Below, piece after piece: positions 91 to 62,977 of a stretch of 64,000 bases of DNA. A model generated the notes under the pieces. It did no database searches and was not told the DNA's origin. It was given only the letters and a program-made list of their open reading frames with translations. Location: positions 13,214-77,213 of the forward strand of contig WFQU01000020.1 of NCBI GenBank assembly GCA_015486845.1. The letters run 5' to 3'. This DNA is from Anaerolineae bacterium (GTDB lineage: Bacteria > Chloroflexota > Anaerolineae > JAADDB01). The first letter of the stretch is position 1, and each line of letters starts with the position of its first letter. The translations under genes were made by a program, and so were the position numbers.

Positions 91-132
91 TTGATCTGCG
101 TCCCATTTTTATTTTCAGAGGAGATTGGCATC

Positions 133-3529: not shown

Positions 3530-3965
3530 AATGTGATTATGATAGCTCCAAAGTGACTGCTCAGAATCCTCTATCGAACCACTTCAAGTTGCTGCCATTT
3601 GCCAGGGCGGACTTTTTAGAGCTACCAACGGGTAGCTCGGCCAATATTAACGCAGTTCCTACCTACTCCGACAATGTCAAATTACCCACGAAACAGCCGT
3701 ATAGGAACTTCCATACTATTAGCCGGGCGACCCTGGGTCCCCAGTAGGTCAGGCCACGCCACGCCTATAACATTGTCGAGCTACAAAAAGAAAACACCTC
3801 TTCTACATGTGCTTTCGCAGCGATGATATCTTTTCTGGGCAAAAAACATGACTGTTCAAGAGTCAAGTAAGTTATGCTTTAGGAAGAATAATTGCAACTA
3901 TTCGAGTTTCGACACTTAGCGACTGCAAACTAATTTAGTCAAACTACAACATTTGCTATACCCTG

Positions 3966-9325: not shown

Positions 9326-9421
9326 CGCTAATTACGCAGATTTCACGCCGACAAATCAGAAAGGATTAGCGAAAATCAGCATTTTTTCGCATCCTATTGC
9401 GGGACAAGCTGAGTAGTCACC
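9326..9421 (-). repeat. R3 element copy A (conserved ~95-nt upstream module), oriented toward rmd-gmd-manB
   Basis: On the minus strand it reads GGTGACTACTCAGCTTGTCCCGCAATAGGATGCG...GCTGATTTTCGCTAATCCTTTCTGATTTGTCGGCGTG. It is block-wise identical to copies at 12144-12241, 28971-29070, 62896-62977 and 45241-45338. Confidence 0.7.
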
Positions 9422-10839: not shown

Positions 10840-12219
<1,380 letters not shown>

Positions 12220-12241
<22 letters not shown>

Positions 12242-13209
12242 TTTTTCTTTGGCTCCGACAGGAGCGCTTCGACCTTATCGTCTCCGTACGTTTTTTCGTA
12301 ACGGTTGATGAACGCTTCGAGCGAATAGTAATGATTCTGTGGTCCCATTTGTTCCAAGACATAGGTAGCAGCTAAACTGCCGATGCGCCCGGCAGTGGCC
12401 CAATCCAGCCCACTATGTAAGCCGGCCAACAATCCGCTGCGATATGCATCCCCCACCCCAGTGGGATCGGCGGCAGTAATAGGTGGAGCAGGGGGAATAG
12501 AAATCTTTTCACCGGCATGGTAGATCAACGAGCCTTTTTCGCCTAACGTTACGATGACCGTTTCTGTCAGCGCCAGGATCTCTTCATGGTGAAGGCCAGT
12601 TTTGTTCTTGACCATCTCATATTCATATTCATTGGCGATGAAAATACGAGCGCCCCGGATGCCATCGATCAACCTTTCTGCCGAGAGACGCACTATTTGT
12701 TGGCTGGGATCGTAAAGATAAGGAATACGCAGCGTTTGGCACTCCTGGACGTATCTATTCATAGCGTCCGGATCGTTGGGCGAAATAACAGCCCATTCAA
12801 TCTGCGCTGTATCCATATCACGAAAGCTAAGTTCTTTGGCTTTAGCCATGGCGCCGGTGTAAAAACTGGCGATCTGGTTGTTCTCTTCGTCAGTGCTCAC
12901 GAAGAAGGAGGCAGTGAAATCATCCGGGATGACTTTCCAGCCGCTGGTATCCACACCGTGCTGAGCTAACCAGCGCCGGTATTCTTCCGCGTCTTGGCCA
13001 ACCGTAGCCATGATGATAGGATGTTGCTTGAGCAAGCTCAACGAATAAGCAATATTGGGAGCACACCCCCCACGCACACGGTGCATGGAGTCAACTAAAA
13101 AGCTGACACTGAGGTGGGCAATTTGTTCCGGCAAAATATGTTCCCGGAATTTTCCCGGAAAAGACATAATGTAGTCATAGGCGACCGAGCCGGTAACGAC
13201 GATACTCAT
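12220..13209 (-). CDS. PfkB family carbohydrate/nucleoside kinase, probable adenosine kinase
   Basis: MSIVVTGSVAYDYIM and the PfkB signature near the C-terminus (DPTGVGDAYRSGLLAGL). It is the first gene of the riboswitch-controlled ahcY-metK operon, which fits adenosine salvage. Confidence 0.65.
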
Positions 13210-13279
13210 TTTTTGGCAAACTCCTTTCTTTATGTCGCCCTCGCTAAAAACGTCCAGCGAGGGCACCGTGGTCCATGGC

Positions 13280-13437
13280 ACAAAAAAAGCTCCCCCGAGA
13301 GGAGCATGTCTTTTAGAATGCGCCTCCCTTATCTTTCAAGCAGTGTTGCCTGCCGGAATTGGCACCATGAACGCTTTGTTGCTGCGCTCCGGTTGCCGGA
13401 GGATCAACGGGCCGGTCCCTCCCCTCCTCTTGATAAG
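13280..13437 (-). promoter_or_regulatory. SAM-I (S-box) riboswitch with intrinsic terminator
   Basis: The minus strand reads CUCUUAUCAAGAGGAGGGGAGGGACCGGCCCGUUGAUCCUCCGGCAACC...GGUGCCAAUUCC...UGAAAGAUAAGGGAGG. This matches the S-box conserved blocks (P1 CUCUUAUC/GAUAAG, GGAGGGA, GGCCCG, GAUGA, GGCAACC, GGUGC-AAUUCC). It is followed by the hairpin GCUCC-ccgaga-GGAGC and UUUUUUU about 70 nt before the kinase start. Confidence 0.85.
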
Positions 13438-13671
13438 AGTGCTTCTCTTATTTATGTAATTTCACAAACACAATCAATATACAGAGTTTTCCTCGACTTG
13501 TCAAAAAAACATAAGGCTGGGCTACGTCGGTGCCATCGCAATAATTCCTTCATAATGCACTATTACACAGCAGCCTGAATGGATCTGCGGTTGTTAAGGG
13601 CTCGGCGCATCACGGATGCGGCTATCTCTGTTTAGAAGTCCAACCTCTGCGAGAAGTTAAACTTCATCAAG

Positions 13672-15141: not shown

Positions 15142-15215
15142 AGCCACCCATCGGACTCGAACCGATAACCTACGCATTACGAATGCGTTGCTCTTCCGAA
15201 TTGAGCTAGGGTGGC
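15142..15215 (-). tRNA. tRNA-Thr (anticodon CGU)
   Basis: The minus strand gives GCCACCCTAGCTCAATTCGGAAGAGCAACGCATTCGTAATGCGTAGGTTATCGGTTCGAGTCCGATGGGTGGCT as a cloverleaf. It has a 7-bp acceptor stem, a T-loop GGTTCGAGTCC and anticodon loop TTCGTAA. CCA is not encoded. An upstream TTGTCA-17-TATAAT promoter is present. Confidence 0.85.
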
Positions 15216-15458: not shown

Positions 15459-15530
15459 GCGGGTGTAGCGCAGTGGTAGCGCATCTGCTTCCCAAGCAGA
15501 GTGTCGTGGGTTCGAATCCCATCACCCGCT
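15459..15530 (+). tRNA. tRNA-Gly (anticodon CCC)
   Basis: GCGGGTGTAGCGCAGTGGTAGCGCATCTGCTTCCCAAGCAGAGTGTCGTGGGTTCGAATCCCATCACCCGCT folds as a cloverleaf. A canonical TTGACA-18-TATAAT promoter lies at about 15417-15446. Confidence 0.85.
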
Positions 15531-24689: not shown

Positions 24690-25140
24690 TCCGAAAATAA
24701 GCTTCTCTGGAGGGTAGCCGAGGGCAAAGCCCTCGGCTACCCTCTCCTCCGAAAAATAGAACGCTAACCAACGGCGTTCTCCGCCCGACCGCACGGGGAT
24801 CAAATCCCCGTGCTACATCGCCAAGAAGCCCCCTGAAAGGGGGATAGTGTTGAACAGCCGCTTGGCAGCGAATGCTACCTTGACGCACCCCGCCGGCGTA
24901 CCGGAATCGAGGCTTTAGCCGGTGGTAGCCCCACCAACCCATCTAAAGGCTTGACGCCAGCTGCATTATCTTCATCCGCTGTGGTGCGCCGCAGGCCCAT
25001 GCCGACTCCTCCGAAAATAGAACGCTGAAAATAAGACCTCTCCCCTGGCTTACCGCCCAAAGGGGCAGCAAGCCTGCCCCTCCCCGTATCGGGGAGGGGC
25101 AAAAGCTAAGCGCAGCGCAGCTTGGGGGAGAGGTCTCCCC
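24690..25140 (+). repeat. R2 mosaic repeat, copy 1 (multi-hairpin modules)
   Basis: About 450 nt that match the reverse complement of 54755-55395 module by module. Shared modules include GGCGTTCTCCGCCCGACCGCACGGGGATCAAATCCCCGTG, GGCTTTAGCCGG...CCCATCTAAAGGC and GACCTCTCCCC...CCCTCCCCGTATCGGGGAGGG...GGGGAGAGGTC. Confidence 0.75.
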
Positions 25141-28970: not shown

Positions 28971-29070
28971 AGAACACGGATTCACGAAAACAAGTCGGAA
29001 AGGATTAGCGAAAATCAGCGTTTATCTGCGCCATCTGCGTCCTATTGTTGGGAAGACCAAGTAGTCACGA
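28971..29070 (-). repeat. R3 element copy C (between murJ and recF, antisense to both)
   Basis: Contains GACTACTTGGTCTTCCCAACAATAGGACGCA...GCTGATTTTCGCTAATCCTTTCCGACTTGT. It is the only copy not co-oriented with a downstream gene. Confidence 0.65.
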
Positions 29071-29215: not shown

Positions 29216-29300
29216 AGTAACTACTCAGCCCTGCGGCGATTGGCAGGCAACCTGCACAGGCAGGTTCAGCAACTATTGGCAGCGATTTCTAATCGCCGGA
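29216..29300 (-). repeat. R1 repeat, partial copy b
   Basis: The reverse complement reads GGCGATTAGAAATCGCTGCCAATAGTTGCTGAACCTGCCTGTGCAGGTTGCCTGCCAATCGCCGCAGGGCTGAGTAGTTACT. Confidence 0.7.
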
Positions 29301-29338
29301 TGCGGTAAGCTGAGCAGTTACCGGAGAAAAAGAGAATC

Positions 29339-31525: not shown

Positions 31526-31932
31526 CGATAAAAACGATGTAACCCGCGGCCCATAGTCATTTTTTCTTTCCCCCTGGCTATGTTATACTGTCTTGGAATG
31601 TTGTTTCATTCCTTCAGGACAGTACCTTATCAACAGAATTCGTGGCTACTCAGCTTTCCTAACCAGAAAACGCAACTAAACGCTTGTTTCTCGCAGATCT
31701 CTTCTGTTCATCTACGGGCATCTGCGTGAAATCTACATAATCAGCGTTCTTTTCGGCCAGGGCTAAGTCGTCATCGAAATGCTTGTACGTTAGACAAAAT
31801 TGAACGCGAGGGCTGTAGAGAAGGCCAAGACACAAAGCGAGAATTATGCAATCCTTTGCATCTCAGTCTGGCAGCCACTTTGCGTCGCAGCCTTGTTATT
31901 TCCGACTCAACCAAGATCAGGAGCAAATAAAC

Positions 31933-37390: not shown

Positions 37391-37457
37391 GGATCGCGAG
37401 GACAGGTTTCGCAACTGTGGCCGCTATTTCCAATCGCCGGACGGAGTAGACCGAGCC
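37391..37457 (-). repeat. R1 repeat, partial copy e
   Basis: The reverse complement reads CCGGCGATTGGAAATAGCGGCCACAGTTGCGAAACCTGTCCTCGCGATCC, with GGAGTAGAC adjacent. Confidence 0.5.
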
Positions 37458-45211: not shown

Positions 45212-45240
45212 TTACCTTCTCCTCCGAAAACAAAAATGGG

Positions 45241-45338
45241 ACGCAGATCAACGCAGTCTGCGCACACAGATAAAAAACAATGGTCAAAAAATTAGTAACA
45301 GATTCTCCCCTGAAAATAGCTCCTATTGCGCCGGAGTA
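45241..45338 (-). repeat. R3 element copy E, immediately upstream of argD/lysJ
   Basis: The minus strand reads CTACTCCGGCGCAATAGGAGC...TTGTTTTTTATCTGTGTGCGCAGACTGCGTTGATCTGCGTCCC, followed by the RBS TTTTCGGAGGAG and ATG. Confidence 0.65.
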
Positions 45339-45387
45339 GAGGCTTTAGCCGGCGATAGACCCACCAGCCCATCTAAAGGCTGCCTCG

Positions 45388-45560
45388 CCCGGCGATTAGA
45401 AATCGCTGCTACAACTTCGAAACCTGCCTGCGCAGGTTGCATGCTAATCACCGTAGGGCGATTTGGCAGATGTTGCCGTGACTTTTAGTCGCTGGGCCAT
45501 CAGCCGTCATCAACTGGCTCCATTCCTATCCATGTAGCATGACTTCTCGAGCCTGCGACC
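45388..45560 (+). repeat. R1 repeat, full-length copy c
   Basis: CCGGCGATTAGAAATCGCTGCTACAACTTCGAAACCTGCCTGCGCAGGTTGCATGCTAATCACCGTAGGGCGATTTGGCAGATGTTGCCGTGACTTTTAGTCGCTGGGCCATCAGCCGTCATCAAC...GCATGACTTCTCGAGCC. It is about 90% identical to 62531-62700. Confidence 0.8.
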
Positions 45561-45707
45561 TGCAATAAAGTATAACACAAAATGGCCTACATGCGATAGG
45601 GATGACAATGCTTTGCTATGTTTGCATGATGGTTTGCATTTTCCTCGCGGCATGCGTTAAACTATATGGTGATAATCTGTTGCAGGCAATCATGAAGGAG
45701 GCGCAGC

Positions 45708-46224: not shown

Positions 46225-46300
46225 AGATGCTGATTGTTGTTAGTCTTTTCTTGATTTATCTGCGTGTAGTTTGCGTTCTATTGGACCAAGGCTGAACAGT
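46225..46300 (+). repeat. R3 element copy G (3' half), immediately upstream of 2H phosphoesterase gene
   Basis: GCTGATTGTTGTTAGTCTTTTCTTGATTTATCTGCGTGTAGTTTGCGTTCTATTGG matches the 3' blocks of R3-A and R3-B (GCTGATTTTCGCTAATCCTTTCTGATTTGTCTGCGTGGAACCTGCGTTCTATA). Confidence 0.6.
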
Positions 46301-46340
46301 TACGAAGAGCATAACATTGCCATTTGAGGGAGTACCTTAC

Positions 46341-46895: not shown

Positions 46896-46977
46896 ACACG
46901 TGGTCTGGCGACGTTGCGATAAATTTTAATGTCTGCGTATGAGATAGGTGTTCACCATCGCCTATCTCGTACGTAGA

Positions 46978-47022
46978 TTGGAAATTGCTGCCGCAGTGGT
47001 AAAACCTGCCTGCGTAGGCTGT
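46978..47022 (+). repeat. R1 repeat, short partial copy f
   Basis: GATTGGAAATTGCTGCCGCAGTGGTAAAACCTGCCTGCGTAGGCTG against the R1 consensus GATTAGAAATCGCTGC..ACAAC..GAAACCTGCCTGCGCAGGTTGC. Confidence 0.45.
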
Positions 47023-47065
47023 GGCTCAGTCGCTGCAGGATGATTTTACAGATGCTGCCGTTTTG

Positions 47066-49612
47066 TCACGCCCAGCGCACGAGCCCCAATTCGAACGGAT
47101 TGGCCAGAGCCGGATGTTTGGGCGTGGCACGCACACCGTAAACGTAATGCCCATTTTGCGATGTCTGAAAAGCACCCCGATACACAAAAGTGCCATCTTC
47201 TTGCACTTTTTGTTGTGCCATCTCTATCGCCGTGACAGGGCCTTCCTGCCCATTACGGCGAATAACAACTAACTCGACGGCGATTTCTTCCGGCTTGATG
47301 GTGCCGGGGAAAAGATAGGCAGCGACTTCGATCGCCTTTCCTACCGTCCAATGTCCATCTTGGGGGCCTTCGGCGCGCAAGCTGATAGTCGGCCAAAGTT
47401 GGCGCATCCGGGCTTTCCACGCGGCCAGCGCTTTACCTAACTGGTAATGGCTCCCGCTCAGTCGTACTTGTTGTTCTGCGGCCGGGAAATAGTAACGATT
47501 GAAGTACTCTTTGACCATGCGCCGGGTGTTGAATTGCGGCGCAATGGACTGTATACTGGCCTTCATGCGCTGTACCCATTGGACCGGCACGCCATTTTCA
47601 TCGCGAGCGAAGAAAAGCGGTATGATGCCGCGTTCCAATTGGGCGTAAAGCGATAGTGCATCCGCTTCATCTTGCGTTGTTTCGTCTTTGTAGGTTCGCT
47701 CCTCGCCGATAGCCCAGCCATTAGTGCCGTTATAGCCTTCTGGCCACCAGCCGTCTAAGACGCTAAAATTAAGGACGCCGTTGAGGCCTGCTTTTTGCCC
47801 GCTGGTACCGCTGGCTTCCAGAGGGCGCCGCGGGTTATTCAGCCAGACGTCCACGCCTTGCACCAAATGCCGGGCGATGTTGATATCGTAGTTTTCCACA
47901 AAAAGCACTTTGCCCTGGAAGGCCGGCTGTTGGGCTAACTGGTATATCTGTTGGATCAATGCTTTTCCCGGCTCGTCGGCGGGATGTGCTTTGCCGGCGA
48001 AAACGATTTGTACCGGATGTTCGGGATCGGAAAGGATACGCTTGATGCGTTCCATATCGCGGAAAATGAGCATTGCTCGTTTATATGTTGCGTAACGGCG
48101 AGCAAAGCCAATGGTCAACGCTTCTGGATCCAACAATGTCACGGATGCATTGATCTGTTGCACGGTCTCACCATGTCGTAGTCGTTGTTGTTGGATGCGC
48201 TGGCGTAACAATTTGATCAGGGCCTTTTTGTCGGCTTGGTGAACTTCCCATAAAGCCTGATCTTCGATTCTATCCGTCACATTCCAAAAGGCGGGATTGT
48301 CCTGGTCGTCCTGCCATTGCGGTGCGCTTTTTTCTTCTATCAGTGCGGATAACCTTGGGGAAAGCCAGCTTTCCAAATGCACGCCATTGGTCACAGCACT
48401 GATGGGCACTTCAGCCAAGGGTAAACCCGGCCACAAATCGCTCCACATTCGGCGGGAAACAGCACCATGTAATTGGCTCACGCCGTTATGCAAACAGGAG
48501 AGCCGTATCGCCAGCACGGTCATGCTGAATTGCATGCCCCAAGGTGTGTTCCAGCGTCCTAAATCCAGAAATGACTCTCGCGTCAATCCCAATTCACCCC
48601 AATAAAAGCTGAAATATTTGTCCATGAGTTCAAAGCTAAAAGCATCGTTACCGGCCGCTACCGGCGTGTGTGTGGTGAATAGATTAGACGCTTTGGTTAG
48701 TTCCACGCTCTCGTCGAAAGTCAATGCGTCATTGACCATGAATTGGCGGATCCGTTCTAAGCCGAGGAAAGCGGCGTGGCCCTCATTCATGTGGTAAACG
48801 GCCGGCCGAATACCCAATGCGTTGAGCGCCCGTACACCACCAATACCTAAGACGATTTCTTGAGCAATGCGAATTTCTTTGTCGCCGCCATAAAGCCGCG
48901 CTGAAAGGTCTCGATCTTGCTGGGCATTTTGCGACACATCCGTATCCATCAAATAAAGATTGATGCGACCAACCCGAATTTCCCAAACACGAGCATAAAC
49001 GATGCGTCCCGGCAATTTGACATTGACGATGATATCGTTGCCATCTGTATCTTTAGCCGGTAGGGCCGGCACTTCGGAAAAATCTAATTTCTCGTATTCT
49101 GCTTCTTGATAACCATCATGGTTGATTTTCTGCGTGAAATAGCCTTGTGGATAAAGGAAGCCTATCCCAACGAAAGGCAGCCCCAAATCGCTGGCTGCTT
49201 TACAATGATCGCCGGAGAGAATGCCCAAACCGCCAGAGTAGATGGGTAGCACTTCGTGTAAGCCGAACTCAGCCGAAAAATAGGCGATGGGGCCATCCTG
49301 GTAATCGGCGTGGTTTTGTCGGAACCAGGTGTCTTTTTGTCCCATGTAAGCATCGAACTGGCGCAAGACTTCTTTGTATTGGACTAAGAAAGTCTGGTCT
49401 TGTGCCGCTTCGTCCAGCCGGGCTTGCGGGACTTCCCGTAGCAGTTTAATCGGATTGTGGTTCGTGGCTTCCCATATTTCTGCCGATAATGTTTTATAAA
49501 GTGCTTGTGCGTCGTCGTGCCACGCCCACCACAGGTTATTGGCCAGCGCTTCCAAGCGACTGATGGACGCCGGCAAGGTGGGAAATACGGAAAATTGTCC
49601 TAAGATATTCAT
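47066..49612 (-). CDS. glgP: Alpha-glucan (glycogen/maltodextrin) phosphorylase
   Basis: GT35 family. The PLP lysine region is EASGTSGQKAGLNGVLNFSVLDGWW. The start at 49612 (MNILGQF) avoids overlap with the upstream TPR gene. Confidence 0.9.
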   Translation of the reverse strand: MNILGQFSVFPTLPASISRLEALANNLWWAWHDDAQALYKTLSAEIWEATNHNPIKLLREVPQARLDEAAQDQTFLVQYKEVLRQFDAYMGQKDTWFRQNHADYQDGPIAYFSAEFGLHEVLPIYSGGLGILSGDHCKAASDLGLPFVGIGFLYPQGYFTQKINHDGYQEAEYEKLDFSEVPALPAKDTDGNDIIVNVKLPGRIVYARVWEIRVGRINLYLMDTDVSQNAQQDRDLSARLYGGDKEIRIAQEIVLGIGGVRALNALGIRPAVYHMNEGHAAFLGLERIRQFMVNDALTFDESVELTKASNLFTTHTPVAAGNDAFSFELMDKYFSFYWGELGLTRESFLDLGRWNTPWGMQFSMTVLAIRLSCLHNGVSQLHGAVSRRMWSDLWPGLPLAEVPISAVTNGVHLESWLSPRLSALIEEKSAPQWQDDQDNPAFWNVTDRIEDQALWEVHQADKKALIKLLRQRIQQQRLRHGETVQQINASVTLLDPEALTIGFARRYATYKRAMLIFRDMERIKRILSDPEHPVQIVFAGKAHPADEPGKALIQQIYQLAQQPAFQGKVLFVENYDINIARHLVQGVDVWLNNPRRPLEASGTSGQKAGLNGVLNFSVLDGWWPEGYNGTNGWAIGEERTYKDETTQDEADALSLYAQLERGIIPLFFARDENGVPVQWVQRMKASIQSIAPQFNTRRMVKEYFNRYYFPAAEQQVRLSGSHYQLGKALAAWKARMRQLWPTISLRAEGPQDGHWTVGKAIEVAAYLFPGTIKPEEIAVELVVIRRNGQEGPVTAIEMAQQKVQEDGTFVYRGAFQTSQNGHYVYGVRATPKHPALANPFELGLVRWA

Positions 49613-51905: not shown

Positions 51906-53342
51906 TTATGCTCCTCGTTCCAAAGTTTCTTGCAATAATTTGCGCACGACATCCGGGTTGGCTTTCCCCTGTGTTTCTCGCATTACCTGTCCCATGAACC
52001 AGCCCATGAGCCCTTTCTTGCCGCCACGGTATTTAGCCACTTCGCCGGGATGATGGGCAAGCAGACGCTCAATGATGCCGGCCAGTGCTGCATCGTCGCT
52101 GACTTGTGCCCAACCGTGATTGACGACAATTCTCTCGGCCGACTCGCCGTTAGCGAACATCTCTGCCAGCACTGCTTTGCCGGTGTTGCGGTTAATTTTG
52201 CCGGTGTCTATCAATTGCAAAATGCTGACTAAGCCGGCTGGTGTGACGTTACCTTCCTTAAAAGTTACACCTTTTTCCCGCGCGATGCCAATTAACTCGC
52301 CGGTGAACCAGGCCGCGACAGTCTTCGGCTGTGGGTAAAGGGCAACGGCGGCTTCGTACCAGTTAGCAATATCCTGTTCCGAAGTGAGAAACATGACGTC
52401 GGCCGGTTGGAGCCGGTATTGGGCAGCGAAACGTTCCGCTTTGGCGTCCGGCAGTTCCGGTAAGCGTTGAGCGATCTCGTCGATCCAGGCCTGACTTACT
52501 TGCAGCGGCGGCAAGTCCGGTTCGGGGAAATAGCGGTAGTCGTTAGCTTCTTCTTTGCTGCGCTGCACAAACGTGTGGCCGGCCGCTTCGTTCCATCCCA
52601 TGGTCACTTGCTTAATTTGGCCGCCGGATTCCAGCACTTGGATGTGCCGTTTTACTTCGTAATCGATGGCGTTGCGTACTGCCCGAAACGAATTTAGGTT
52701 CTTGACTTCAACTTTGGTGCCAAATTCTTTTTGTCCGACGGGACGCACAGAAATATTTGCCTCGCAGCGCATGGCGCCTTTTTCCATGTCCGCGGTGCTG
52801 ACACCCGCGTAGCGCAGCAATGTGCGCAGTTTGGTCAAATAGTTGTACGCTTCGGTGGCGGAACGAATGTCCGCTTCGGTGACGATTTCCAGCAACGGTA
52901 CGCCGGCCCGGTTCAAATCGACCAGGCTGTGATCCCCCATGTGCACTAATTTGCCGGTATCTTCTTCCAAATGGGCCCGCTCAATGCGAATACGCTTCGG
53001 TTGGCCGTTATCGTCCTGGATGTCTACGTGACCGTGCAGGCAAAGGGGCAGTTCGTATTGGGAAATCTGGTAGCCTTTGGGCAGGTCTGGATAATGATAG
53101 TTCTTACGGGCAAAAACAGCGGTCTCGGCAATGTCGCTGTGCAGCGCTAAGCCGGCCAGAATAGTGGCTTCTACCGCTGCTTTATTGATTACGGGCAATG
53201 CGCCGGGCAGTGCCAAGCAAACGGGGCACACGTGGGTGTTCGGCGGCGCGTCGGCATAATCGGCGCTGCATGAACAAAACATTTTCGATTCAGTCAAAAG
53301 CTGGGCATGCACTTCCATGCCGATGATGACTTCGTATTCCAT
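51906..53342 (-). CDS. gatB: Aspartyl/glutamyl-tRNA(Asn/Gln) amidotransferase subunit B
   Basis: [25 protein letters not shown] and the C-terminal GatB/YqeY domain. AAGGAG Shine-Dalgarno before ATG at 53342. Confidence 0.9.
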
Positions 53343-53370
53343 GCTGAATTCTCCTTCGAAAATCAATAGG

Positions 53371-53410
53371 ACACAGATCAACACAGGCTGCGCACGCAGA
53401 TAAAAAAACA
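53371..53410 (-). repeat. R3 3'-block (copy F) upstream of gatB
   Basis: The minus strand reads TTGTTTTTTTATCTGCGTGCGCAGCCTGTGTTGATCTGTGTCC. It aligns almost base-for-base with the segment upstream of argD/lysJ (TTGTTTTTTATCTGTGTGCGCAGACTGCGTTGATCTGCGTCC). Confidence 0.6.
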
Positions 53411-53422
53411 AACGCCCGTTTG
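53402..53422 (-). terminator. Rho-independent terminator after aminotransferase gene
   Basis: Minus strand CAAACGGGCGTTTG followed by TTTTTTT. It overlaps the 5' end of the conserved motif above. Confidence 0.6.
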
Positions 53423-54754: not shown

Positions 54755-55395
54755 TAGCTGCCCATGACGCGATGGGCATGCATCATGGGCCTGTAGCCTG
54801 CCTGTGCGGGCACGCAGACAGGCGCACCACAGCGGCCGAAAATGATGCGGCTGGTGTCAAGCCTTTAGTTAGGCGGGTTGGTGGGCCTACCACCGGCTAA
54901 AGCCTCAATGCCGGTGCAGCGGCGGGGCGCGTCAAGGTAACGTCCTCTGCCAAGAGGCTGCTTAACACCAGCCCCTTTCTAAGGGGCTTATCATTTACGT
55001 AGCACGGGGATTTGCCCCCCGTGCGCTCGGGCGGAGAACGCCGTCGATTAGAAGTTCAACTTTTTGAAGGGGGCCTGATTTTTTAGATGCTCCGCGCCTT
55101 AGCGCCACTGCGTCAACTTATTTTGAGAGGAGTTTGTCATTGCGAGGCCCGACAGGGCCGTGGCAATCTTCCTTACTGGCGTTGGAGATTGCTTGACCAA
55201 AAAGAGGGTCACACTGTCGCTTCGCTCGCAATGACATGACTGATTTGAAGGCGTTGCGTCAGCTATATTTAGGGGAGACCCCTCCTCTAAGCTGCGCTAC
55301 GCTTAGCTTTTTCCCCTCCCCGATACGGGGAGGGGAAGGCTTGCCGCCCCTTTAGGCGGCAAGCCAGGGGAGAGGTCTTATTTTCAGAGAAGGCA
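54755..55395 (-). repeat. R2 mosaic repeat, copy 2 (inverted relative to copy 1; carries extra ~250-nt internal segment)
   Basis: The reverse complement aligns with 24760-25140. The module order differs, and one hairpin shows compensatory substitutions (CCCCCTgaaaAGGGGG against GCCCCTTagaaAAGGGGC). Confidence 0.75.
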
Positions 55396-55460
55396 CCGCC
55401 GGGCGACCACAAGGATTTGCTCTTGCTTTTTGAATAGATGCGATTTATGTCGTTGAACTA

Positions 55461-57224
55461 TCACGGCCCCTGTGGAGGGCCTAACGTAGCAATTTGCGTT
55501 GGCTGCGGTGTGACGGTCGGCTGCGGTGAGTGGGTGTTGGTTGGCTGCGGCGTGTTGCTCGGCCAGGGTGTGCTGGTTGGCTGTGGCGTGGCGGTCGGCT
55601 CCGGCCAGGGTGTGCTGGTTGGCTGCGGTGTGGCGGTCGGCTCCGGCCAGGGTGTGCTGGTTGGCTGCGGTGTGGCGGTCGGCTCCGGCCAGGGTGTGCT
55701 GGTTGGCTGCGGTGTGACGGTCGGTTCCGACCAAGGCGTGTTGGTTGGCCACGGCGTGTCAGTCGGTTCCGGCCAAGGCGTGTTGGTTGGCCACGGTGTG
55801 TCAGTCGGTTCCGGCCAAGGCGTGCTGGTTGGCCACGGCGTGTCAGTTGGTTCCGGCCGGCGCGTGCTGGTTGGCCACGGTGTGGCGGTCGGCTCCGGCC
55901 GGCGCGTGCTGGTTGGCCACGGTGTGGCGGTCGGCTCCGGCCGGCGCGTGCTGGTTGGCCACGGTGTGGCGGTCGGCTCCGGCCAGAGTGTGCTGGTTGG
56001 CTGCGGTGTGGCGGTCGGTTCCGGCCAAGGCGTGCTGGTTGGCCACAGTGTGGCGGTCGGCTCCGGCCAGGGCATGCTGGTTGGCCACGGTGTGTCAGTT
56101 GGTTCCGGCCGGCGCGTGCTGGTTGGCCACGGCGTGTCAGTCGGTTCCGGCCGGCGCGTGTTGGTTGGCTGCGATGTGGCGGTCGGTCCCGGCCAGGGCG
56201 TGTTGGTTGGCCACGGCGTGGCGGTTGGTTGCGGGCTTACTAATTCCCTTCGGGATGTAGGCTGACGAGTGGGTACAACAACAGGCAGCGCTGTATCAGT
56301 TGGATAGATAGTATGCAACAGTGTCGGCGTTGCTATGAATGTAGGCGTTGGTGTTGGCCTTGGCATGCGTGTAGGCGTTAGCGTTGACCTTGGCGTGCAT
56401 GTAGGCGTTGGCGTTGACCTTGGCGTGCATGTAGGCGTTGGCGTTGGCGTGCCGGTAGATAATTCAGCCAATAACATTGTCGTGCGAGCTAATGTAACTT
56501 GAACCGGTTTCTGATCTGGCGGCGGCACTTCTCGAGAGAGACGCGTTAGTTGGCGTTGTGCTGTTTGCAATGTTTTACCGAATTGTTCTGTGGCGGCCAT
56601 TCGTTGTGGTACCGGTACAGCAGCCAATGCAGCTTGGGCTGATTGTACTGCTTGCCAATAATCGTCCAGCAATCGTGGATCGGGATGGGCATGTTGGTTA
56701 GCATAAGCGTATTCATCAAGGCGCCGTTGCGCTAACTGCGCGTAAACGACAGAGTGATCTTGGGGGGGGCGTGTTATCAGCGTGATGCGCTCAAGGGGAC
56801 GTTTTAGCTCGTATAGCGGTTGGCCGGGCATGCTGTGCATGGCAGCAGCATGTATACTAAGCCCGATGGCTAACAACAACACAGTGGTTATTAATGTTGG
56901 GGCTAAACGTGTCAAGACGCCTTTGGGCTGCCAAAAAAGTGCTCGCCATCGGGCTAAAGGCGATTGTTGCTCTTTTTGTAAGGCAGCATGCATGCGCGCT
57001 CGGGCTTTGTGCGTAGCTTGCGCTGAAGGTCGAGGTTGTTGAACAAGCAATAAGCGTCGAGCCGTTTCAACATAAGGCGCAACAGCTTTTTGTTCCTCAG
57101 CGGATAACGCTGTGTCTTGCTTAGGATCATAACCTCGCACATCTTGTTGTAGATGTGCGAGGGCCTTTTCTAAGATGTTTTCGTCCACTTCTGCGCTATT
57201 TAACCTCTCTATGCCACACGACAC
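55461..57224 (-). CDS. Putative anti-sigma factor with single TM helix and ~330-aa extracytoplasmic Pro/Thr-rich tandem-repeat domain
   Basis: It lies immediately downstream of, and overlaps, the ECF sigma gene. The N-terminal cytoplasmic domain is followed by a TM segment ([18 protein letters not shown]), then about 17 near-identical 14-aa units of [28 protein letters not shown]. Confidence 0.6.
55510..56230. repeat. Tandem 42-bp repeat array (~17 units) within anti-sigma CDS
   Basis: The unit is GGCTGCGGTGTGGCGGTCGGCTCCGGCCAGGGTGTGCTGGTT, with point variants. It generates spurious ORFs in several frames on both strands. A second short array of 33-bp units lies at about 56330-56460. Confidence 0.9.
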
Positions 57225-57873: not shown

Positions 57874-58632
57874 AGTTCTATGATATACTTTGGCCCCGTT
57901 CCCTGCAATTCCTGTAATTTCAAATTTACCCCGGCGCAGAAACAGATTCGAGAATCAGGCAGTTGGAAACCGCATCTATATTTGCTGAGCGTTACGCTTA
58001 GAAGGCGGCTAATAGTCTGCACCGGTGGACTGGACAGGCCTATCGCTCCGATTTTCTGTTGCTCGGCGTGAAAAAGTCTATTACCGGGCTGATACATTTA
58101 GCATTACTGTTGCTATTCATGTCCCCTATCTATTTGTGACTACTCAGCGATTCTAAGTCATAGAACCCAGATGACGCATATACCTAATAAATGCTGATTT
58201 TCTCTGATCTTGTCTGATTTATGGACAGCTGTGTAAGATCTGTGTTCTATTTGACCACGGCTGAGTAAATTTCTTTGTTTACTGCCCGAACAGGTCATCA
58301 GTATAGCGTACTAACTACACCAACGTGCGAATATGTTGAAAGGTTACGGTGAATTAATTCTCGGTAACTCCTGCGCAAAATCCTTGTTGGTTCGATATTC
58401 AGGTCGGTGCAGATCGGCCGGCGTCGCGACAGGACGAATAACTCAATTGCGTGCGAATTGGAACTAATTCTCAAGATATTGCATAACCTTTTCTGGCTCA
58501 CTTGCGTTGATTTGATTGGAAAGGTTATGACATGACTATTTTCGAAAGCGGTTTTGTCTCATGAGCGAAAAAGAAAATGCATTGTCAAACTGTTTTCCTG
58601 GTAAACAAATTCTTTCTGCGGAGGTATAAGAC

Positions 58633-60138
58633 ATGATGAAGAAACTATGGCGGTATGTCGTGATAGTAGCTGTATTGGCTATGGTGGGAAGCGCATTACC
58701 TATGATGAGCTTTGCAGCTATCAATGGTAATACAGCACCGGCTGTCTTACAGGGCGTCATCGAGAGCATGCCCGACGCGGGTAACATCGGCGTATGGCAG
58801 GTCAGCAATGTCCCGGTGCTGGTTGACGCATCGACGATTATCAGTGACCGAGCTGGAGCGCCCGACGTGGGCAGTTCGGTCAAGGTGCAAGGATTCCCGG
58901 ACGGGAATGGTGGTATTACGGCTAAGCGTATCAAAGTCGAAACCATGATGCCCGATGCTCAGTTAACGGGTGTTCTGGATGCTTTTGATGCCAATGGTGT
59001 ACTTGTTGCTGGCGTTGACATTGCTCGAGACGCTAATACGTTGGTTGTGGGCGCATTGCATGCCGACCAGTATGTTAAAGCACTTTTCGAAGTAGACCAA
59101 GCCGGGCAACGGATGGCAGTTCAGATAATCTCTGCGGAGGCTGAATACACGCCTGCAGTGGTTCACTTTGCAGGGCTTATTCAAACGGTGCCAGCTGGAC
59201 GTGCAGGAGATTGGATCATTGCCGGTCAGCATGTGCAAGTAACTGCGTCTACTTGGATGAATGAGTACAAAGGATTGGCACAGGTCGGCGCTATGGCGGC
59301 TGTGCAAGGCATACGACAGGCTAATGGTGTGTTGCTCGCCAGCAAGATTACCGTGCTGAAAGCGTTGAATGAGAATATGCCGAATCCTATTCATGCCTAC
59401 ACTGAATTTCAGGGTATTGTTGATGAACTGCCTGCGGGCACGTTTCTTGGAGCATGGCAAGTTAGTGGGCGTACAGTGAAAGTGACAGCATCTACCTACG
59501 TCGCAGGCGCGATAGAGGTTGGTGACCAGGTACTCGTGAAAGGGTATGTTTTGGCTGATGGTTCCGTTACGGCTGACCGCATTATAGCACTTGGTAGGGA
59601 AAACGGTACGCCAAGCGACCCAGGTAACGGTCACATGCCTACCGTGACGCCGACGCCGTATAACCCGGGCAGCGGCTGGATGCCGACAGCGACTCCGACG
59701 GCTTCTAACCCGGGCAGCGGTCACATGCCTACCGTAACACCGACGCCGTACAACCCGGGCAGCGGCTGGATGCCAACAGCGACTCCGACGGCTTCTAACC
59801 CGGGCAGCGGTCACATGCCTACCGTAACACCGACGCCGTACAACCCGGGCAGCGGCTGGATGCCCACGGCGACTCCGACGGCTTCTAACCCGGGCAGTGG
59901 TCACATGCCTACCGTGACGCCGACACCGTACAACCCGAGCAGTGGTCAGATGCCGACAGCGACTCCGACGGCTTCTAACCCGGGCAGCGGTCAGATGCCG
60001 ACGGCGACTCCGACGGCTTCTAACCCGGGCAGCGGTCAGATGCCGACAGCGACTCCGACGGCTTCTAACCCGGGCAGCGGTCAGATGCCCACGGCGACTC
60101 CCACACCTCATCATTATGGACCTTTCGGAAACGGTTGA
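58633..60138 (+). CDS. Secreted repeat protein: signal peptide, 3-4 internal ~90-aa beta-rich repeats (DUF5666-like) and C-terminal 15-aa PT/NPGSG tandem repeats
   Basis: Signal peptide MMKKLWRYVVIVAVLAMVGSALPMMSFA. Internal repeats have the form GxWQVSxxxVxVxAST...VGxxVxVxGxxxxDGSxTAxRI. The C-terminus carries about 10 units of PTATPTASNPGSGQM/PTVTPTPYNPGSGWM. Confidence 0.6.
   Translation: MMKKLWRYVVIVAVLAMVGSALPMMSFAAINGNTAPAVLQGVIESMPDAGNIGVWQVSNVPVLVDASTIISDRAGAPDVGSSVKVQGFPDGNGGITAKRIKVETMMPDAQLTGVLDAFDANGVLVAGVDIARDANTLVVGALHADQYVKALFEVDQAGQRMAVQIISAEAEYTPAVVHFAGLIQTVPAGRAGDWIIAGQHVQVTASTWMNEYKGLAQVGAMAAVQGIRQANGVLLASKITVLKALNENMPNPIHAYTEFQGIVDELPAGTFLGAWQVSGRTVKVTASTYVAGAIEVGDQVLVKGYVLADGSVTADRIIALGRENGTPSDPGNGHMPTVTPTPYNPGSGWMPTATPTASNPGSGHMPTVTPTPYNPGSGWMPTATPTASNPGSGHMPTVTPTPYNPGSGWMPTATPTASNPGSGHMPTVTPTPYNPSSGQMPTATPTASNPGSGQMPTATPTASNPGSGQMPTATPTASNPGSGQMPTATPTPHHYGPFGNG
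59630..60105. repeat. Tandem 45-bp repeat array within secreted-protein CDS
   Basis: The unit is CCGACGGCGACTCCGACGGCTTCTAACCCGGGCAGCGGTCAGATG, alternating with a variant. It produces the spurious antisense ORF 58963-60207. Confidence 0.9.
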
Positions 60139-60242
60139 AGGGTATTGATTAGTTAATGTAATGTTTCGCAGAATGTTTGGAAGGCTTCTCCTGAGCTTTC
60201 CAAACATTCAAAATATGCTAATGAGAAAAGAGCGTACCGATT

Positions 60243-62459: not shown

Positions 62460-62530
62460 GGTCCTTTTTCCCTTTGATGTCCTATCACGCATACGCTAAA
62501 GATAATACAGGGGAGGGCATTCTGCCTTGT

Positions 62531-62700
62531 CCGACGATTAGAAATCGCTGCCACAACTGCAAGACCTGCCTGCGCAGGTTGCCTGTTAATCGCCGTAGGG
62601 CGATTTTGTAGATGTTGCCGTGACTTTTAGTCACTGGGCCCATCAGCCGTCATCAACCAACCCCATGCCTATCCCCGTAGCATGACTTCTCAAGCTTACC
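62531..62700 (+). repeat. R1 repeat, full-length copy d
   Basis: CCGACGATTAGAAATCGCTGCCACAACTGCAAGACCTGCCTGCGCAGGTTGCCTGTTAATCGCCGTAGGGCGATTTTGTAGATGTTGCCGTGACTTTTAGTCACTGGGCCCATCAGCCGTCATCAACC...GCATGACTTCTCAAGC. Confidence 0.8.
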
Positions 62701-62860
62701 CTGAAAATAGCCCCCAGGCCCCAAATTCTAGGAGGGGTGTTGATCCCCCCAAGGTTGGGGGATAGGGGGCGCGTTTTTAGCCGCTGTGATGTGCCTGTCT
62801 GCGTGCTCGCACAGGCAGGCCGCCGGCCCATGCCGACTCCTCTCTATACAATGAAATATG
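62700..62860. repeat. R2-related fragment
   Basis: CCGCTGTGATGTGCCTGTCTGCGTGCTCGCACAGGCAGGCCGCCGGCCCATGCCGACTCCTC matches module ends found in both R2 copies. The hairpins CCCCCCAAGGTTGGGGG and GGGGTGTTGATCCCCC are present. Confidence 0.5.
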
Positions 62861-62895: not shown

Positions 62896-62977
62896 CTGAT
62901 GACACAGATAAATCAGAAAAGATCAGCGAAAATCCACGTTACCTGTGTCTTATAGTTAGAAGGGGTGAGTAGCCACC
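62896..62977 (-). repeat. R3 element copy D
   Basis: The minus strand reads GGTGGCTACTCACCCCTTCTAACTATAAGACACAGG...GGATTTTCGCTGATCTTTTCTGATTTATCTGTGTCATCAG. Confidence 0.6.

Follow-up and report, generated by a model that had tools for sequence, protein, structure and literature searches.

R1, a four-hairpin intergenic repeat that probably belongs to a family of miniature mobile elements in Anaerolineae

R1 is a hairpin-rich repeat found in six copies in the window, i.e. the whole 64-kb stretch of DNA analysed here, and probably represents a branch, specific to its lineage, of a family of mobile elements of the Anaerolineae (Chloroflexota) that are miniature and non-coding. The family is best described as a MITE with REP/BIME-like habits, in that singlets, inverted dimers and also tandem arrays occur among its members. 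The signs of transposition are found in relatives of R1 rather than in the window; for the window copies, which look like decayed or rearranged derivatives, we infer mobility from the homology of their core with that of the mobile relatives.

R1 copies in the window and their genomic context

The same six loci, and no others, were found in the 64-kb window by three methods, namely repeat detection, nhmmer with a profile built from the two long copies (D and F) and an unfiltered covariance-model search. The nhmmer E-values range from 1e-80 to 6e-7, and the copies are as follows:

Copy A: 1-86, - strand; cut by the window edge; nhmmer E=5.5e-28; 96% identical to D
Copy A completed from NCBI contig L112, positions 229-117: core-only, ~113 nt
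Copy B: 29228-29308, - strand; truncated, with P1, P2 and half of P3 kept; nhmmer E=1.3e-16
Copy C: 37397-37457, - strand; truncated, with P1 and the 5' half of P2 kept; nhmmer E=6e-7
Copy D: 45380-45565, + strand; core 45387-45499, tail 45500-45565; nhmmer E=1e-80; covariance model 111.7 bits
Hairpins of copy D, + strand: P1 45391-45406, P2 45421-45438, P3 45446-45463, P4 45478-45492
Copy E: 46962-47080, + strand; diverged core; nhmmer E=1e-14; covariance model 77.6 bits
Copy F: 62522-62706, + strand; full length; core 62529-62641, tail 62642-62706; nhmmer E=6e-76; covariance model 115.2 bits

The six places given in the initial annotation are therefore those recovered by all three methods, and its description of a repeat present in both orientations (A, B and C on the - strand; D, E and F on the + strand) and always intergenic holds: all six copies lie between ORFs, with P about 1e-5 on the basis of an intergenic fraction of about 15% of the window. 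The nhmmer search that had been suggested along with it was run in the window with the result above, and relatives were then found outside the window too. The density, on the other hand, had been taken as unusual; it is ordinary, as genomes rich in REP or MITE sequences (e.g. REP in E. coli and Correia in Neisseria) typically have a copy every ~10 kb.

The copies are 60-186 nt long, multi-copy and dispersed, and none of those in the 64-kb window contains an ORF of its own. Core identity is 96% between A and D, 92% between A and F and 90% between D and F; with respect to these three copies it falls to 83-85% for B, about 80% for C and 71-74% for E, in the stems of which many G.T pairs and mismatches are found.

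The genes around the copies are of the housekeeping type, coding for Usp, MurJ, a RecF-like ATPase, PBP2, a class-III aminotransferase, a YbaK-like editing protein, a 2'-5' RNA ligase-like protein, glucan phosphorylase, an RlmD-like methyltransferase and an M20 peptidase. From the P1 end of copy B it is 38 nt to the recF-like gene downstream, copy C lies just 3' of the stop codon of the PBP2 gene, and copy E overlaps the last ~13 nt of the phosphorylase ORF. No transposase or integrase was found near the window copies, and no Y1 transposase (RAYT) gene in the 64-kb window. DNA identical to the window is present in the NCBI MAG GCA_027008065.1, in the Logan run SRR10312495 and in an ENA vent-metagenome assembly, the closest labelled protein relatives being those of Anaerolineae/Anaerolineales MAGs. 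Every one of the public short-read contigs of this organism, an uncultured vent bacterium, that were examined stops inside or beside such a repeat.

Hairpin architecture

The part common to the R1 copies is a core of ~113 nt with four hairpins (P1-P4), which is followed by a tail of ~65 nt in D, F and the copies of the related locus L001 (see below). Since the completed copy A is core-only, the tail is optional. Truncation always spares the P1 end and removes the other side, as in B, C and the third L001 copy. In copy F the hairpins are:

P1: 62533-62548, GACGATT-AGA-AATCGC
P2: 62563-62580, GACCTGC-CTGC-GCAGGTT
P3: 62588-62605, AATCGCC-GTAG-GGCGATT
P4: 62620-62634, GTGAC-TTTTA-GTCAC

The four palindromes originally quoted for the family are all present and are the stems of P1, P2, P3 and P4, the last of them reading GTGACTTTTAGTCGC in copy D. 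In addition, the linker between P1 and P2 pairs with that between P3 and P4 to form a junction helix.

The building block is a two-hairpin unit of ~52 nt, made of P1 (GGCGAYT-loop-ARTCGC) and P2 (AACCTGC-CTGC-GCAGGTT), and in the second half of the core (P3 and P4) the first half is repeated in inverted and diverged form. In the nhmmer search the core hits itself in reverse-complement orientation (E=2.8e-9) and, in the three elements compared, the first unit is 60-63% identical to the reverse complement of the second, above all 500 shuffles. By joining P1 and P2 to an inverted copy of themselves the core thus becomes a composite palindrome, able to extrude four hairpins on either strand.

Relatives of R1 and conservation of the structure

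In the species-representative genome collection one other genome contains R1, namely the Anaerolineae MAG WFQT01, in which locus L001 is made of 2.4 head-to-tail copies of a 172-nt unit. A scan of metagenomes with the exact P2 18-mer as the key returned 107 loci. Of these, about 25 qualify as true relatives, in that P1 is spaced as expected; many of them have P3 and P4 as well. Because the P2 18-mer was the search key, conservation of P2 among them is uninformative. A stricter 26-base pattern gave zero matches in the metagenomes. The relatives score 30-126 bits against the R1 covariance model, and the genes that flank them belong to Chloroflexi/Anaerolineae MAGs. Distant blastn returned no R1 match from plasmid and phage collections; two matches of the P2 18-mer in viral contigs were rejected, being inside phage coding sequence and not R1-like.

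The relatives take several forms. Sharp-edged P1-P2 singlets are found at L018, L083, L104 and L110 (B, C and copy 3 of L001 also count as singlets), L039 is a perfect inverted dimer and L100 is a tandem array of 3.1 copies of an 85-nt unit.

The hairpins of the relatives are kept through compensatory changes. In a 12-sequence alignment, for which RNAalifold predicts five helices, standard pairs occupy 94.7% of the cells as opposed to 23-44% with slid partners, changes on both sides are seen in 10 of 33 pairs, and the covariation score is 0.289 versus at most 0.099 with slid partners; none of 500 shuffles reached the observed values. A second alignment, which includes five sequences with hand-trimmed loop insertions and has the P4 columns out of register, was left out of these statistics. 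P1 alone is found as four Watson-Crick-compensated stem variants (GCGATT/AATCGC, GCGACT/AGTCGC, GCGGTT/AACCGC and GCGAAT/ATTCGC). Covariation within a palindrome is, however, also expected where a dimeric protein reads both half-sites.

Mobility of the relatives

In several relatives of ~165 nt the core lies in the middle of an element with terminal inverted repeats and perfect flanking duplications that are unrelated to one another. The terminal inverted repeats are 14-26 nt long in L106, L089, L080, L069, L034 and L122, and where duplications are found on both sides the element is complete at ~165-180 nt. Termini and duplications of four of them are:

L106: terminal repeat CAGGGCAATCGCAT..., duplication ACCATCTACC, 10 bp
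L089: terminal repeat CAGGGCAATCGCAT..., duplication GTGTTTGCGC, 10 bp
L080: terminal repeat GGGTGCAAGCAAAT..., duplication CCGGATAAG, 9 bp
L034: terminal repeat GGGGCAAGCAAAT..., duplication ATTGGTCAG, 9 bp

The L080 locus was also compared across assemblies of the same and related Chloroflexi/Anaerolineae MAGs. The spacer between rsgA and oppD is filled in L122 and L080, where it measures 602 nt, and empty in L121 and L123, where it measures 425 nt and contains a single CTTATCCGG; the difference of 177 nt corresponds to a 168-nt element plus a second CTTATCCGG. In these four sequences RsgA is 100% identical and the aligned spacer otherwise differs at two single bases. Taken together, the terminal repeats, the duplications of 9-10 bp and the filled and empty site in relatives point to the R1 family being a MITE.

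Insertion as seen in the relatives bears the mark of a DDE transposase acting in trans. When the terminal repeats of the relatives were sought beside a transposase in the window and fragments (~0.9 Mb), only chance matches in coding DNA were obtained, and no ISAs1-type transposase was found. Insertion sequences of the ISAs1 family have CAGGG termini and 8-10-bp direct repeats. L106 and L089 begin with CAGGGC and end with GCCCTG, and their CAGGG termini and perfect 10-bp duplications resemble those of ISArsp11, a member of the ISAs1 family whose inverted repeat is CAGGGCTGATGCAAAGTCG and whose duplication measures 10 bp (PMC6305408, Table 3), although the terminal repeats agree with those of ISArsp11 at no more than 9 of 19 positions and a second subgroup of relatives differs in having GGGTGCAAGC termini and 9-bp duplications. 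The ISAs1 family is a possible parent, the similarity of the ends providing a lead and not a demonstration.

The same core is found under different termini in different subfamilies. Being common to subfamilies with different terminal repeats, it could be an independent unit that has been captured by MITEs.

Ends and insertion sites of the window copies

With the covariance model, the window copies and the mobile relatives are connected by scores of 112-126 bits. The terminal inverted repeats and target-site duplications that it had been proposed to look for are, however, absent from the window copies inspected: no terminal inverted repeats were found at D or F, and no target-site duplications around D, F or the L001 array. 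Copy F is bracketed by CAGGGG at 62509 and CCCTG at 62699-62703, with no further inverted repeat. Nor was a conserved motif of 4-5 nt, such as IS200/IS605 elements use as a target, found on the 5' side of the left end of R1. The initial suggestion of a non-autonomous mobile element is therefore borne out by the relatives, through their terminal repeats, duplications and filled and empty site, but not by the window copies, which have neither repeats nor duplications.

Same-strain contigs are identical to the window at the R1 loci or end in the repeat. A contig of another strain (L115, 98.6% identical) switches to a different repeat module at window position 45318 and then ends. In the nearest other species (L113 and L131, 72-86% protein identity) the spacers cannot be aligned with those of the window, and no R1 was found in ~20 kb. 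The R1 branch is abundant in the source species and in the MAG that contains L001, and is not seen in the available sequence of the next relatives.

R3 and the mosaic structure of the spacers

R3 is a repeat family separate from R1, with the following copies:

9342-9420, R3, repeat detection
12158-12240, R3, repeat detection
28981-29068, R3, repeat detection
62899-62976, R3, repeat detection
31627-31771, 46227-46319 and 58133-58257, weaker R3 matches, 65-70% identity

Three R1 copies had been described as lying next to an R3 module, which would suggest composite elements. Adjacency is indeed found for B and F, but with different spacing and orientation, the order of the modules being R3(+)...R1(-) at B and R1(+)...other module...R3(+) at F; beside D there is no clear R3 copy. 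What is found beside D is a 45-nt, 5'-UTR-like block that recurs in the leaders of two genes, usp and the one that starts at 53411, and a fragment of a third repeat family (45331-45381, matching 24901-24951), so that the left edge of D adjoins another repeat family ending at 45381. The core of copy A, in contig L112, directly abuts a different repeat module, the same that follows F. Given that the majority of R3 copies have no R1 nearby, and that the arrangement of the neighbours varies, the adjacency reflects co-clustering in a few long spacers and the idea of a fixed R1-R3 composite finds no support.

In the long intergenic spacers several hairpin-rich repeat families are combined as a mosaic. 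The short motif CTCYSAAAATAR is often found at the joints between modules (9 matches versus 1.8 expected), and coincides with the reverse complement of the Shine-Dalgarno-containing leaders of real genes. A small ORF with a Shine-Dalgarno sequence and an ATG in a neighbouring repeat module was considered and rejected, its second copy having an immediate stop. The NIMEs of Neisseria are repeat blocks punctuated by short dRS3 repeats, and the spacers of the R1 window resemble them as mosaics of repeat modules joined at a recurring short motif, CTCYSAAAATAR; they differ in that the joint motif overlaps gene leaders and no associated recombinase is known.

Alternative explanations

That R1 gives rise to small structured RNAs, an option of the initial annotation, or acts in cis as an RNA module such as an mRNA-end stabiliser or a regulatory leader, with hairpins needed by the transcript, appears quite unlikely. 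Strong covariation for a fold made of P1, a three-way junction (P2, P3) and P4 would be in keeping with an RNA, and so would the location of the elements, the P1 end being 38-176 nt from a gene start in four window copies and many relatives being 4-23 nt past the stop codon of a co-oriented gene. Gene orientation, however, is mixed, as the P1 end points at the start of a divergent gene in ~12 of 27 elements and comes after a co-oriented gene in ~14. The excess of G.T over A.C pairs on the + strand (20:10), also to be counted in favour of an RNA, shrinks to 13:8 when the decayed copy E is left out, and in a wider set of relatives the non-canonical pairs of P1 are mostly of the A.C type. The hairpins do fold, as the suggested folding of the copies established, but equally well on both strands, with RNA z-scores for D of -2.4 on the + strand and -2.3 on the - strand, and ssDNA z-scores for the F core of -4.8 and -4.9, respectively. 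As neither strand is singled out, folding provides no positive evidence for a discrete small RNA. Neither a sigma-70-like promoter nor a credible intrinsic terminator was found in or at D or F. In the window, Rfam 15 at the gathering score yields a SAM riboswitch and two tRNAs only, none of them at R1, and at E<=10 the matches on R1 are at chance level; the best, CRISPR-DR28 on the P2 hairpin, scores 23.6 bits in F and 21 in D, below the gathering score of 35, is not accompanied by an array and was rejected. The Rfam search of R2 and R3 gave nothing relevant. Finally, truncated and tandem copies suit DNA repeats better than genes. Lack of promoter, terminator and Rfam match, strand symmetry and mixed orientation thus leave the RNA option without positive support, while R1 may be passively transcribed within UTRs.

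The main rival is a RAYT-type mechanism, according to which R1 would be of the REP/REPIN/BIME type, with its 52-nt unit replicating as an ssDNA hairpin through a single-copy Y1 transposase (RAYT-like, IS200/IS605-type). We consider this improbable, as we do the associated proposal that the relatives with terminal repeats are secondary captures of a REP dimer in an unrelated MITE or in a palindromic target. Like REP, BIME and REPIN sequences, R1 is extragenic, with about one copy per 10 kb, and consists of palindromic units that occur singly, as inverted heterodimers or in clusters and in which complementarity is conserved; indeed, P1, P3 and P4 conserve complementarity and not sequence. The sharp-edged singlets, the inverted dimer L039 and the tandem arrays at L001 and L100 would be in keeping with such a mechanism, as would the lack of terminal repeats and duplications in the window copies, and REP dimers inside larger palindromes are reported from other phyla (PMC3733652). 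However, the REP superfamilies described so far are defined by a GTAG/CGTC tag beside the palindrome (PMC3733652), and no conserved GTAG or CGTC tag is present at P1: the reverse strand beside it reads GT-N-GC, N being T in most copies, A only in D, A, L029 and L074, and G in F and L001. The unit of 52 nt with two hairpins exceeds a classical REP, R1 forms direct tandem arrays, the conserved 4-5-nt target 5' of the element is missing, and transposition of the relatives produces 9-10-bp duplications, whereas HUH/Y1 enzymes create none. Still less probable, to the point of being very doubtful, is that R1 is the solo terminus or an internal fragment of a longer element (an IS, an integron cassette site or a prophage att site) or an operator-like cluster of palindromes to which a regulator of the host would bind. 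The half-site GGCGAYT, common to P1 and P3 in the window copies and in one subgroup of relatives, and the CAGGG...CCCTG bracket of F, reminiscent of ISAs1 ends, could be read in this sense. Against it, the P1 and P3 stems vary between subgroups and yet remain self-complementary, which argues against a fixed protein half-site, and the element is complete in those relatives that have duplications on both sides. Furthermore, the flanking genes are all housekeeping with no transposase or integrase nearby, plasmid and phage collections have no match, and viral contigs have chance matches only.

R1 as a probable branch of a MITE family

The reading of R1 as a branch of a miniature mobile-element family is, therefore, the one we favour. 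The window copies would descend from insertions of MITE-like elements whose usable ends were lost or never present. They would then have been shortened from the P4 side and joined to other repeat modules, while in a related genome R1 copies would have been duplicated in tandem. At present they are probably immobile relics, shuffled by recombination among repeat-rich spacers, and any effect of R1 on neighbouring genes would be incidental.

R1 shares with known bacterial MITEs, such as Correia of Neisseria, Nezha of cyanobacteria and the enterobacterial elements of the RU/ERIC type, a length of 100-200 nt, the lack of coding capacity, intergenic location, copy number and richness in hairpins; its relatives also share terminal inverted repeats, target-site duplications and presence/absence polymorphism. 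It differs from them in that the window copies are without terminal repeats or duplications, that the conserved part is the internal four-hairpin core and not the termini, and that this core is common to subfamilies with different termini.

R1 is, then, a previously undescribed member of a well-known class: selfish DNA of an ordinary sort, from a phylum that has received little study. It opens no new mechanism and gives no hint of a host function. With a filled and an empty site in a relative the family is a documented active MITE, and none was described for the phylum in the literature searched. Its one mildly unusual feature is a covarying four-hairpin core maintained across subfamilies with different termini, in combination with both MITE and REP-like habits. 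Repeats of this kind are invisible to gene annotation, and limit the contiguity of MAGs in the Anaerolineae; the spacers that they mark can be told apart even where two strains have 99% identical proteins.

A more speculative idea, which we hold only tentatively and think unlikely, is that the ~52-nt P1-P2 unit is a new, tag-less REP-like superfamily, conserved in many lineages and habitats of the Anaerolineae, which would propagate itself in the form of singlets, inverted dimers and tandem arrays by means of an enzyme or a host process and would have been captured repeatedly in transposons with terminal repeats. If so, mobility would be two-tiered, and the sequence would owe its unusually wide conservation not to recent spread but to a conserved partner protein or to a function that the hairpins have for the host.

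Repeat modules around the R1 copies

A second intergenic repeat family, R3 (so named in the initial annotation), distinct from R1 and with the consensus ...ACAAATCAGAAAGGATTAGCGAAAATCAGC...TGCGTCCTATTG..., is dispersed in the window, in four clear copies and three weaker matches, most of which are not adjoined by R1. An Rfam scan of two of the copies (those at 9.3 kb and 62.9 kb) gave no match.

R3 copies in the window
9342-9420, clear copy
12158-12240, clear copy
28981-29068, clear copy
62899-62976, clear copy
31627-31771 (-), weaker match
46227-46319 (-), weaker match
58133-58257 (-), weaker match

Two further intergenic regions of about 400-600 nt each, 24746-25140 and 54784-55387, are mutually inverted at 80-92% identity. 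Both are composed of several hairpin-rich modules; one has the inverted repeat GACCTCTCCCC...GGGGAGAGGTC at its two ends. Pieces of these modules adjoin R1 copies A, D and F.

Fragments of the mosaic modules
45327-45381
62705-62832
1-117 of L112, the NCBI contig completing copy A

The junctions between repeat modules are where the motif CTCYSAAAATAR sits, which is enriched in the window (nine occurrences found versus 1.8 expected, a count reached in 0 of 100 shuffles). On the opposite strand this short motif reads TATTTTCRGAGGAG, which is the Shine-Dalgarno-containing leader of both usp and the aminotransferase gene.

Sites of CTCYSAAAATAR
109-120 (-)
24689
25009
25023
45222
45308
55118 (-)
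55378 (-)
62699

Three genes unrelated to one another, namely usp, the class-III aminotransferase gene and the gene starting at 53411, have in their 5′ leaders a common block of about 45-80 nt (76-95% identity) that includes the ribosome-binding site; the block appears to be a leader or promoter module that is repeated.

Shared leader block
79-124
45218-45262
53326-53407

Strain or assembly differences

L115, a contig from another sample, is 98.6% identical to the window in DNA, its aminotransferase being 99% identical, and agrees with it up to 45318 (L115 position 67), where a different repeat module, like that at 25026-25099, takes over; therefore, either the spacer upstream of the aminotransferase gene differs between close strains, or an alternative path through the assembly graph was followed. 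At position 3700, across which the window sequence is continuous, the public scaffold L111 carries 100 Ns (3673-3772) and L112 ends at the very same base, a join that may hide unassembled, possibly repetitive, sequence.

Arrays and dimers of R1 relatives

L001, 191-595, R1-unit relative, tandem array of a 172-nt unit, 2.4 copies
L100, 4517-4787, R1-unit relative, tandem array of an 85-nt unit, 3.1 copies, upstream of a gene
L039, 8342-8485, R1-unit relative, perfect inverted dimer

The first is a locus of an Anaerolineae metagenome-assembled genome and the others are metagenome loci.

Other features of the window

Long in-frame tandem repeats (42-nt period in 15 copies, 30-nt period, and 45-nt period in 10 copies) lie within large ORFs at 55434-56460 and 59528-60152. 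They are unrelated to R1, and the ORFs seem to encode surface or secreted proteins rich in repeats. Structured RNAs include two tRNA genes and, upstream of the minus-strand ORF 12220-13281, a SAM-I riboswitch that scores 89 bits (E=7e-20).

13326-13439 (-), SAM-I riboswitch
15142-15215 (-), tRNA gene
15459-15530 (+), tRNA gene
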